From an uncultured Verrucomicrobiota bacterium (GTDB lineage Bacteria > Verrucomicrobiota > Kiritimatiellia > CAZCOO01): a stretch of DNA of 39,024 bases. The stretch is taken from positions 1 through 39,024 of the forward strand of contig CAZCOO010000005.1 in the NCBI GenBank assembly GCA_964500395.1, read 5' to 3'. Under the pieces are notes generated by a model. The model searched no databases and had not been told where the DNA came from. It saw nothing but the letters and a program-made list of their open reading frames with translations. Every line of letters starts with the position of its first letter. The stretch's first letter is position 1. The position numbers and the translations under genes were made by a program. Positions 1-1,798 of this stretch are shown in pieces.

Positions 1-745
1 GTCTCTGAATATAGTCGTCCAGCTCTCCCGTCAACACGGCGATATTTTTCGGCGTCCCGTTGCGAAGTCTCCCCCGGCCTGGCGCCATAAAGGCCTCTGT
101 GGCGATATAATCGGCATCCACGAGGCATGAGAACATCATCCTGGCAAAAAAAGACAAGCGGAAGGAAGCGTGGGACGGCGACTCCGGGTCTACCAGCGGA
201 GGAAACTCCGGCAACAACATGTCCGACAGCACTGCCGGCGCATGGTCTGTCGGAAAGACGTGTTTCAGCAGGCGTTGTTTCAACCCTGACTGGGTGTATC
301 CGTCATTGTAGTCCGGCAATCCAGCATGATGACCGGCAATCAGATAAGCAAACAGTTGTCCAAAAGGGCTTTGTTCTTGGATGCACTGAGCCCCCGCGGT
401 TGCGTGATCGACTTTTCCATGCATTTCCAGTGTATGGCTATCCTCATCGGAAGCCTGTTTCAGATATGCCTGGAACTCTTCGGAAAATTTCCCCAGATCA
501 TGAAGCAGCCCAATTGCGCGGGCCCATTTTCCCGAGAGTTGGGAGAGGGTGCCACCGGCGGGGAACATCGCTTTGGCGTACTTTTCACAAAGATGCGCAA
601 CCTTGTTCAAATGCCCGTGTTGGGCTTTCAGATTTTCGCAGGCCTGGCATTCACGTGCACAAGAATGGGAATACAGTGGTTCCCATTCGGAAAGCGGAGC
701 GGGTGTACCATCCGGGGATGTTTTGGAGTGGGCATAGAAAGTCAT
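1..745 (-). CDS. cas3: CRISPR-associated Cas3, N-terminal HD nuclease domain (gene starts at 745 and continues off the left edge)
   Basis: Not in the supplied ORF track because it has no stop in the window. My minus-strand translation from ATG 745..743 stays open for 248 codons: MTFYAHSKTSPDG..HLNKVAHLCEKYAKAM..AIGLLHDLGKFSEEFQAYL..HGKVDHATAGAQ..YLIAGHHAGLPDY..FFARMMFSCLVDADYIATEAF. The YAHS start and the LHDLGK, VDH, GHH and DAD..TE motifs are the Cas3 HD signature. GC is clearly lower than in the rest of the window. Confidence 0.85.
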   Translation of the reverse strand, partial: MTFYAHSKTSPDGTPAPLSEWEPLYSHSCARECQACENLKAQHGHLNKVAHLCEKYAKAMFPAGGTLSQLSGKWARAIGLLHDLGKFSEEFQAYLKQASDEDSHTLEMHGKVDHATAGAQCIQEQSPFGQLFAYLIAGHHAGLPDYNDGYTQSGLKQRLLKHVFPTDHAPAVLSDMLLPEFPPLVDPESPSHASFRLSFFARMMFSCLVDADYIATEAFMAPGRGRLRNGTPKNIAVLTGELDDYIQR

Positions 746-999
746 CGCTGCCCACGCTTTGTTCCAGGATGCTGCATGTCTTCTCTCTAGGGCATGACCA
801 TCCTTTACATCAACAAAAACTCTCCCGCGAACCGAGGGCTGCTGATTCCCAAGGCGACACAGGAACTTCTGCCATTATTTCATTACACGTTATCGTGCAA
901 ACGATTACGACAGCCCGCGAACCCGGACAGTATTACGTTACCGTTATCACAGTTTTTTATGCGCTATCGTTTCGGGTTATGCACGTGACGTTGCCGGAT
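746..999. promoter_or_regulatory. AT-rich non-coding region upstream of cas3; could also be a CRISPR leader for the repeat at 1000
   Basis: About 250 nt with no convincing ORF, the lowest GC in the window, and a T6 run at 953-958. Short motifs recur: ATTAC at 882, 904 and 932; CGTTATC at 888 and 942; CCCGCGAACC at 824 and 914. The cas3 promoter must lie here. Confidence 0.45.
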
Positions 1000-1028
1000 C
1001 TTCTCCCCACGCCCGTGGGGATGGTCTT
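1000..1028 (+). repeat. Solitary CRISPR-like repeat (type I-E-family shape): CTTCTCCCCACGCCCGTGGGGATGGTCTT
   Basis: This 29-nt unit has a CCCCACG/CGTGGGG stem followed by a GGGGATGG tail. That is the architecture of I-E repeats as I recall them (E. coli ..CCCCGCGCCAGCGGGGATAAACCG; Thermus GTAGTCCCCACGCGTGTGGGGATGGACCG). Only one copy is present. No second copy lies about 61 nt to either side. It overlaps the gloB stop codon by 1 nt. Confidence 0.4.
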
Positions 1029-1798
1029 TAGAACCGGTCCTTTCGCCGGCGGAGTTCGGCGAAGACGTCGGCGGCGGGGGCATCGGGCATGGCGAGGGCC
1101 TCGCGGACGGCGGGGTGGTCGGCGAGGAGGAAGATGTTGGTTTCTTTTTCCTGTCCGATGGTACTGGGGACGGTGGGCCGCCCCTCCCGCAGTTCCTTCA
1201 GCAGGTGCTCCCGGCGGTGGTGCAGCGGGGCGTAGCCGGGCAGAATGGAGGCGGCGAAGGCGTAGTTCTCTTCGGTGTATTCGTGCCCGCAATACACGAG
1301 CGTGTCCTCCGGCAGGGCGGCGAGTTTCCGGAGGGAGTGCCACATCTGCTGCGGGGTTCCTTCAAACAGGCGTCCGCACCCGCCGACAAAGAGTGCGTCC
1401 CCACTGAAGAGCACCGGGGGCCCGCCGCCGGGCGGCTCGTCGATGATGTAGCTGCAGTCGGCCGATCCGTGACCCGGCGTCTCCACTGCCCGGAGGTGGA
1501 GGCCGCCGCAGGCAAAGGGATCCTCTTCCCCGATCCGGACGGTGCTGCACGGAATCCGGTCATCGCGCGGGGCGACGACGGGGACGTCCCACGCCTGCAG
1601 CAGTTCGGGGACGCCGGCCATGTGGTCGCCATGATGGTGCGTAATGAGGATCCCGCACAGCGATTGTCCGCGGGCCTCCAGCCACTCCCGGACCGGCCTC
1701 GATGCACCGGGATCGACAGCGAGAACCCCGCCCTGCGGGCAGGGTGCGAGGTAGATGTAATTGTCCGTGCGGGCGGGCAGGATTGCGATATCGGTCAT
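1028..1798 (-). CDS. gloB: Hydroxyacylglutathione hydrolase (glyoxalase II), MBL fold
   Basis: [17 protein letters not shown].., the ITHHHGDHMAG metal motif, TPGHGS, and CGHEYT with the C-terminal HAGH-type tail. I place the start at the internal ATG 1798, which forms an ATGA overlap with the upstream gene's stop. The 33-aa N-terminal extension in the ORF track looks like read-through. Confidence 0.9.
   Translation of the reverse strand: MTDIAILPARTDNYIYLAPCPQGGVLAVDPGASRPVREWLEARGQSLCGILITHHHGDHMAGVPELLQAWDVPVVAPRDDRIPCSTVRIGEEDPFACGGLHLRAVETPGHGSADCSYIIDEPPGGGPPVLFSGDALFVGGCGRLFEGTPQQMWHSLRKLAALPEDTLVYCGHEYTEENYAFAASILPGYAPLHHRREHLLKELREGRPTVPSTIGQEKETNIFLLADHPAVREALAMPDAPAADVFAELRRRKDRF

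Follow-up and report, generated by a model that had tools for sequence, protein, structure and literature searches.

A solitary type I-E-family CRISPR repeat at the exact edge of a low-GC island headed by a type I-C-like cas3 gene

Introduction

In 2023, an examination of cas loci detected standalone repeat-like sequences in 25-29% of the untranslated regions that adjoin cas3 in I-E, I-D and I-F1 loci, and described their origin as sporadic. Certain type I loci are enriched in such repeats close to cas3, where they can have a function, and many of them belong to mini-arrays of two repeats, with a spacer that pairs with a cas promoter (Shmakov et al. 2023, bioRxiv 10.1101/2023.03.03.530964). 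In the same year, solitary repeats carried by mobile elements (phages and plasmids) were described that can act as RNA anti-CRISPRs, or Racrs (Camara-Wilpert et al. 2023, PMC10651486). The repeat that is the subject of this study is a further example of the standalone, or orphan, repeats already known from cas loci, and is unusual in only two respects: its subtype does not match that of the neighboring cas gene, and it is positioned exactly at the junction of a genomic island.

The stretch of DNA that was analysed (hereafter ‘the window’) comprises positions 1 to 39,024 of contig C5, from a metagenome-assembled genome (MAG) of 278 contigs and 2.78 Mb that is 89% complete and that contains no contig shorter than 1.7 kb. 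Contig C5 begins inside a cas3 gene, and its left end is organized as follows.

2-745, minus strand: 5' part of a type I-C-like cas3 gene, encoding the HD nuclease domain, 248 codons, truncated by the contig start
746-999, no strand assigned: intergenic region between cas3 and the repeat, 254 nt, 50.0% GC
1000-1028, plus strand: lone CRISPR repeat of the type I-E family in crRNA orientation, CTTCTCCCCACGCCCGTGGGGATGGTCTT
1028-1798, minus strand: native gloB gene, encoding hydroxyacylglutathione hydrolase (TIGR03413, 276.8 bits; cut-off 200.8)
1029/1030, no strand assigned: fork of two haplotypes, with common gloB sequence to the right and either the island (C5) or native high-GC DNA (contig C139) to the left

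Identity of the repeat

Type I-E repeats were recognized by a length of 29 nt, a GC stem with a tetraloop, a GGGGATGG-type 3' handle, and similarity to repeats from arrays located beside I-E cas operons. The sequence CTTCTCCCCACGCCCGTGGGGATGGTCTT is predicted to fold into a 7-bp stem (1004-1010 paired with 1015-1021) with a GCCC loop, at -12.8 kcal/mol, and its 20-base core, CCCCACGCCCGTGGGGATGG, was found as an exact match in 38 public loci of a species-representative genome collection, the majority of which are arrays with a 61-nt period. The hosts of these arrays are MAGs of Kiritimatiellia, Chthoniobacterales, Lentisphaeria and other Verrucomicrobiota; the core is also present in Nocardiopsis and Azospirillum. 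The commonest full repeats among the core-bearing loci were GTTTTCCCCACGCCCGTGGGGATGGTCCG and GTTCTCCCCACGCCCGTGGGGATGGTCCG. The latter makes up long arrays in Chthoniobacterales MAGs and shares 26 of 29 positions with the window 29-mer (the mismatches are at positions 1, 28 and 29). The operon context of the core-bearing arrays was checked at two loci: one array (L030) lies directly 3' of an I-E operon encoding Cse1, Cse2, Cas6e, Cas7e (CT1975), Cas5, Cas1 and Cas2 (CT1978), and the other (L009) lies directly 3' of I-E genes among which Cas5, Cas1 and Cas2 are visible. Judged by its sequence and fold, the window 29-mer is thus a genuine type I-E-family repeat, as a preliminary description of this DNA had proposed. 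The preliminary description had also likened the core of the 29-mer to the Thermus I-E repeat, which would agree with it at approximately 21 of 29 positions. An Rfam scan of positions 600-1300 was uninformative, with the hairpin scoring 15.8 bits against Chlorobi-1, far under the cut-off of 50.

The same comparisons bear on the suggestion that the element is merely a hairpin or terminator that happens to lie downstream of gloB. While a simple scan did report 1004-1021 together with TGGTCTTTAG as terminator-like on the plus strand, the gloB strand has no T-run after the stem, the island-free haplotype represented by contig C139 has no such hairpin after gloB, and an exact 20-base core shared with 38 loci, together with 26/29 identity to real repeats, could not arise by chance in 39 kb. 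A coincidental hairpin is therefore excluded for practical purposes, and retains virtually no probability.

The adjoining cas3 gene

The cas3 fragment matched the TIGR01596 cas3_HD model at 96 bits and two Cas3 chains in the PDB with E values of ~1e-22, and its PADLOC matches were to Cas3c of type I-C (120 and 108 bits) as opposed to Cas3e (32 bits). Its best full-length relatives in a set of 5.8 billion proteins were 46-49% identical; no Cas3 relative exceeded 50% identity in that set, and for that reason no sister strain was at hand. Contigs were fetched for three relatives, all of which carry operons of the form cas3-cas5d-csd1 (cas8c)-cas7-(cas4)-cas1-cas2, and two of the relatives' I-C operons are accompanied by arrays of canonical I-C repeats (for example GTCGCGCCCTTCACGGGGCGCGCGGATTGAAAC) that have a period of 66-68 and end in GGATTGAAAC. 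A Cas3 protein was assigned to type I-C when its best matches were to Cas3c models and its nearest relatives resided in cas5c-cas8c-cas7 operons with I-C repeats; both were found for the N-terminal 248 residues that are available here, and the adjacent cas3 accordingly classifies as type I-C, not I-E.

Given the Cas3c score and the I-C relatives, it follows that the repeat and the cas3 gene come from different systems. The pairing is also not conserved, because the I-E-like core was absent from the five nearest I-C cas3 loci. When the window Cas3 fragment was searched against five genomes that contain I-E arrays of the window repeat family, four gave no match and the fifth gave a match of 22.7 bits; a search for Csd1 in genomes with I-E arrays returned no match, but is uninformative, as its control was equally without a match. 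The preliminary description had entertained the idea that the cas locus uses the repeat class of the 29-mer, and had specified in advance that a cas locus of another subtype would refute it; since the visible cas3 is of type I-C, that idea was abandoned.

The region between cas3 and the repeat

The intergenic region had previously been singled out as the most AT-rich non-coding stretch of the locus, in the arrangement expected of a CRISPR leader. Numerically that statement holds, as the lowest-GC 254-nt segment of the 39 kb starts at position 718; as a leader trait it does not, because the adjoining cas3 coding sequence is also just 53.8% GC (58% at third codon positions, GC3), which makes the low GC a property of the island and not of a leader. 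Several shorter features were located within the region.

874-901, minus strand: sigma-70-like promoter match directed toward cas3, TTTGCA-16-AATAAT with an extended -10 TG (a consensus match only)
883-896, plus strand: short recurring motif TTACACGTTATCGT
935-944, plus strand: short recurring motif ACGTTACCGT
957-970, plus strand: short recurring motif TTATGCGCTATCGT

The three motifs were recovered by a repeat-family search (families D1 and D5); they are short, resemble ACGTTAYCGT, and are distributed around the cas3-directed promoter-like site, and may be putative operators or regulator binding sites. No other promoter-like site was found on either strand in 600-1200, and thus none on the plus strand upstream of the repeat.

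In the PVC leaders that accompany the window repeat family, a TCTTTGACAA..TGAATA box is found approximately 60-70 nt upstream and an (A/T)TGTTGG box at the repeat junction, and these boxes are common to most of 20 relatives. A leader was therefore expected to display these boxes (that is, a TCTTTGACAA-type -35 region and (A/T)TGTTGG), a promoter directed toward the repeat, and a place after cas2. In the window, the boxes TCTTTGACAA, TTGTTGGA and ATGTTGG were absent from both strands of 700-1000 with one mismatch allowed, no promoter match was present on the plus strand, and the neighboring gene is a divergent cas3. A blastn comparison of 746-1028 with the array loci matched the repeat alone and not the region upstream of it. 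A profile built from 20 leaders also gave no match when searched with nhmmer, a run whose sensitivity is doubtful, as it missed 12 bases of repeat too; the explicit motif searches were relied upon for that reason. An I-C-type handle, GGATTGAAAC, was likewise not found in 746-999, and its matches elsewhere were at chance level. Taken as a whole, 746-999 most probably serves the I-C cas3 gene as its upstream region or promoter, and not as an I-E leader.

The search was extended to cas genes elsewhere in the MAG. Neither Cas1 (PF01867) nor Cas6e (PF08798) had a match in it, and a tblastn search of the MAG with all 944 ORFs of the fetched CRISPR loci (L008-L050) recovered only the cas3 fragment and housekeeping genes. 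A complete type I-E system, comprising Cas6e, Cascade and I-E Cas1-Cas2, was thus not found in an assembly that is 89% complete and in which the island is cut by the contig end; I-E genes or an array could be present in the unseen part of the island.

These results weigh on the proposal that the locus is a true empty array, in which 746-999 would be a divergent leader and the repeat would stand ready for an I-E Cas1-Cas2 encoded deeper in the island. According to the preliminary description, a leader and one repeat are sufficient for spacer acquisition in E. coli, and loci of that form do occur in the class to which the window belongs. One of them (contig G403:C224; L064:639-1444) contains an I-E cas2 (PF09707), an 80-nt leader with the family boxes, and one canonical repeat, GTTTTCCCCACGCCCGTGGGGATGTTCCG, at 995-1023, followed by convergent queD and queC genes, and appears to be either an empty array or a collapsed one. 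The window, by comparison, has no leader boxes, no cas2 beside the repeat and a degenerate 3' repeat end, its promoter-like site faces a cas3 gene of type I-C (120 versus 32 bits), and, beyond that fragment, the MAG yielded neither Cas1 nor Cas6e nor any further cas gene. The leader-and-empty-array reading of the preliminary description was consequently not sustained, and is considered very improbable.

Solitary state of the repeat

A CRISPR array was taken to consist of at least two repeats with spacers of regular length, and one copy alone was found. No further copy of the repeat was present in the 39-kb window or in the 2.78-Mb MAG with up to 8 mismatches allowed, in agreement with the earlier claim of a sole repeat, and a generic scan for regularly spaced repeats identified no array of the window repeat in the MAG. 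A degenerate second copy was also not found in 746-999, where the best ungapped match (13 of 29 positions) fell below the mean for shuffled sequence (14.8). A 10-mer in 746-774, CTGCCCACGC, resembles the beginning of the repeat, and was rejected as a degraded copy when the remainder proved unalignable. On the other side, the site at which a downstream partner would be expected (1061-1089) is gloB coding sequence, of which 1061-1084 is also present on the island-free contig C139. A standalone repeat was defined as a sequence that matches a CRISPR repeat over 16 bp or more and that is solitary, intergenic and outside any array; the window repeat has each of these properties, and differs from the usual standalone repeat in that its subtype does not match that of its own locus.

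The regular-spacing scan also flagged hairpin repeats on two other contigs of the MAG, C262 and C217, both of which are unrelated to the window repeat. At the end of the former contig (G000:C262:2177-2339; L083) are three copies of a 27-32-nt GC hairpin element, CCTGCCAGACGAGCTGGCAGGGGTCTT, comprising a direct pair at a distance of 67 nt and a single inverted copy; the element has the appearance of a REP-like sequence and not of a CRISPR, and its 3' GGTCTT probably resembles the end of the lone repeat by chance. At the start of the latter (G000:C217:1-260) are three units of approximately 50 nt, with a hairpin, CACACGCTCCCTCTGCGAGGGAAGCGTGT, at irregular spacing. A scan of metagenomes for the exact 27-mer recovered one unrelated contig (L051:13380-13600; JGI10211J34971_10001319), on which C(T/C)TCTCCCCACGCCCGTGGGGATGGTCC units form a degenerate array with three copies and with ‘spacers’ that are nearly identical to one another, which suggests tandem duplication rather than spacer acquisition.

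The junction with gloB

The gloB gene is 67.9% GC (GC3 82.5%), and base 1028 is the last base of both the repeat and the gloB stop codon, in keeping with the previous observation that the repeat abuts that gene. The GC content is 50-54% to the left of position 1000 versus 65% to the right, across the rest of the window. The first 55 bases of contig C139 (minus strand) are 100% identical to window positions 1030-1084, and this 55-base overlap, between two contigs of one MAG, would be expected at a branch point if a de Bruijn assembler had been run with k = 55. On C5 gloB ends in TAA, on C139 it ends in TGA, and the C139 DNA that leads up to gloB is native-looking, at 64% GC. Because the two contigs diverge at 1029/1030, the repeat represents the exact edge of the low-GC island; the fork further indicates that two haplotypes were present in the sample, one with the island and one without it, and hence that the island is carried by only some of the sampled genomes. 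Positions 1-800 of C139 (L007) contain gloB and, approximately 140 nt beyond it and in the same direction, a gene encoding a membrane protein of 58 residues, as well as an ORF of 120 residues, and the genes past gloB must have been displaced by the island in the island-bearing haplotype. No tRNA was found at the island junction, no microhomology beyond chance was evident when the junction sequences were read directly, and no contig in the MAG extends C5 to the left. Among the four readings that the preliminary description had put forward, that of an island boundary fits best, given that the divergence of C139 coincides with the end of the repeat.

Related loci in the class

With up to one mismatch allowed, the core was found in 16 of 400 sampled genomes of the window's class, mostly in arrays of 4-91 copies. 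In one Kiritimatiellia MAG (L015:5004-5070; JBAZEM010000005.1), a single I-C-type repeat (...GGCACGCCCCCCGCGCGGGGGCGTGGATTGAAAC) begins 5 nt after the end of a long I-E array and precedes a toxin-antitoxin-like gene pair, an arrangement that is a mirror image of the window in that a lone repeat of the other subtype is positioned at the end of an array. This locus and the I-E operon of L030 described above derive from the same MAG (G120), which is classed together with the genome of the window and thereby places the latter in Kiritimatiellia; a search for Csd1 in that genome gave no match, and nor did its control.

Origin of the lone repeat

At positions 28-29 the window repeat has TT where the canonical sequence has CG. 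Related arrays open with canonical repeats and close with repeats that are divergent at their 3' ends (for example ...GGGGATGGTTTG, ...GGGGATGGTCTG, ...GGGGATAGTAAT and ...GGGGATGTCGGT), and the TT-for-CG end of the window repeat looks like that of a decayed last repeat, from which we infer that it formerly occupied that position in an array. The reading that we favor, and to which we assign about an even chance, is that the element is a relic trailer-end repeat of a lost or severed I-E array, now at the border of a strain-variable island headed by an I-C cas3. In such a scenario, recombination would have eliminated the I-E array or cut its trailer-end repeat off from the array body, and the leftover repeat would now be the outermost sequence of a low-GC CRISPR-Cas island that was gained by horizontal transfer, is present in part of the sampled population, and has the type I-C cas3 as its first visible gene. 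The repeat would have no immune role at present, as the assembly lacks a spacer, a matching Cas6e or Cascade, and an I-E Cas1-Cas2; at most, it might supply the gloB mRNA with a GC hairpin just after the stop codon. We infer that the repeat is now inert, while noting that a degenerate 3' end is no proof of that.

An assembly artefact would account for the same features differently: a real I-E array between 999 and 1029 might have been collapsed to a single repeat by the metagenome assembler, with the 5' part of the resulting sequence contributed by the first repeat and the 3' part by the last, a hybrid that would look exactly like the window 29-mer. The MAG is fragmented into 278 contigs, and the repeat is located at an assembly fork, where strain heterogeneity is present. 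This explanation is also kept alive by a second lone repeat, in another MAG of the same class, that likewise lies approximately 1 kb from a contig start, at 995 in G403:C224 as compared with 1000 in the window. The 55-base contig overlap, however, implies that the final k was probably 55 and exceeded the 29-nt repeat, so that, given the behavior of de Bruijn assemblers, a join of leader, repeat and trailer would have required real reads that span it. The family leader boxes are lacking from 746-999, the repeat abuts a cas3 of type I-C, and no other contig of the MAG, which contains none below 1.7 kb, bears the repeat. Collapse of an array is accordingly regarded as unlikely.

Possible functions of the repeat

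A solitary repeat might alternatively be functional if it were transcribed and bound by I-E Cas6e or Cascade, acting either as a crRNA-like regulator or as a Racr-like RNA decoy that weakens resident I-E systems to the benefit of the island. Apart from its final two bases, the window repeat retains an intact hairpin and Cas6e-side handle; I-E, I-D and I-F1 loci show a clustering of standalone repeats around cas3; and RNA anti-CRISPRs can take the form of solitary repeats carried by mobile elements (PMC10651486). Potential targets for a decoy also exist, given that the I-E core is found in 16 of the 400 class genomes. The expectation for a CreA/CreR-like mini-array was a degraded second repeat approximately one spacer away and a spacer partly complementary to a promoter of the locus, and that for a Racr was carriage by a virus or plasmid, a promoter immediately upstream, and binding by a Cas protein. 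Against a functional repeat, no promoter-like site was found upstream on the plus strand and no degraded second repeat was found; the longest complementarity between the 32-nt flanks of the repeat and positions 1-967 (which include the cas3-directed promoter match) was 6-9 nt, as compared with maxima of 9-12 nt in shuffled sequence, and was thus not above chance. In addition, no I-E proteins were found in the MAG, the island shows no sign of being a mobile element and has no tRNA at its junction, and the five nearest I-C cas3 loci contain no I-E-like repeat. The regulatory RNA of the cas operon that had been suggested at the outset is therefore unsupported, and a functional role in either form is held to be distinctly unlikely.

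A more speculative idea, which we consider improbable, is that an island-borne I-E repeat serves as a cross-subtype RNA decoy that disarms the I-E systems common in the class and thereby allows an island with a type I-C system to become established, or as a crossover point for the swapping of CRISPR-Cas modules. The latter is hinted at by the fact that the island ends exactly at the repeat, and by the lone I-C-type repeat that follows the I-E array in L015.

Implications

If the favored reading of a relic trailer-end repeat is correct, the locus preserves a small piece of CRISPR natural history, in which an island headed by an I-C gene bears at its border, as a lone repeat, the trace of a former I-E array. 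For annotation it carries a caution, namely that a repeat and the cas gene beside it may be parts of different systems. The locus also provides a clean example of a CRISPR-Cas island in part of a natural population, with its junction resolved to within a few bases, and a hint that the gain, loss or exchange of cas modules may occur at array ends. Were I-E proteins found to bind the expressed repeat, repeat mimicry would extend to chromosomal islands with a rival CRISPR subtype; were the far end of the island found to bear an I-E operon or array with CTTCTCCCCACG... repeats, the I-C module would have split an I-E locus.

Comparison with known systems

The locus shares with the standalone repeats of Shmakov et al. 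(2023) the absence of an array, an intergenic position and a place beside cas3. It differs from them in subtype, as their repeats match their own locus while the window combines an I-E repeat with an I-C cas3, and it differs from the mini-arrays in that study in having no second repeat and no match to a promoter. With Racrs it shares a solitary repeat, of a subtype that is present in the host clade, on acquired DNA. A typical Racr candidate, however, is encoded by a virus or plasmid immediately 3' of a promoter, in many cases with acr genes nearby, whereas the window has no plus-strand promoter match or mobile-element evidence and its visible neighbor is cas3.

Within the class, the leader and single repeat of G403:C224 resemble the window in that a lone I-E repeat of the same family has a cas gene on one side and a convergent housekeeping gene on the other; the former locus has an I-E cas2, leader boxes (TTCTTTGAAAT... 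and ...ATGTTGCT) and a canonical TCCG end, none of which the window possesses. Finally, the window repeat differs from I-E trailer-end repeats in that it has no attached array and stands alone at a junction with native DNA, and it resembles them in that its stem and 5' part are intact and its final bases have diverged.
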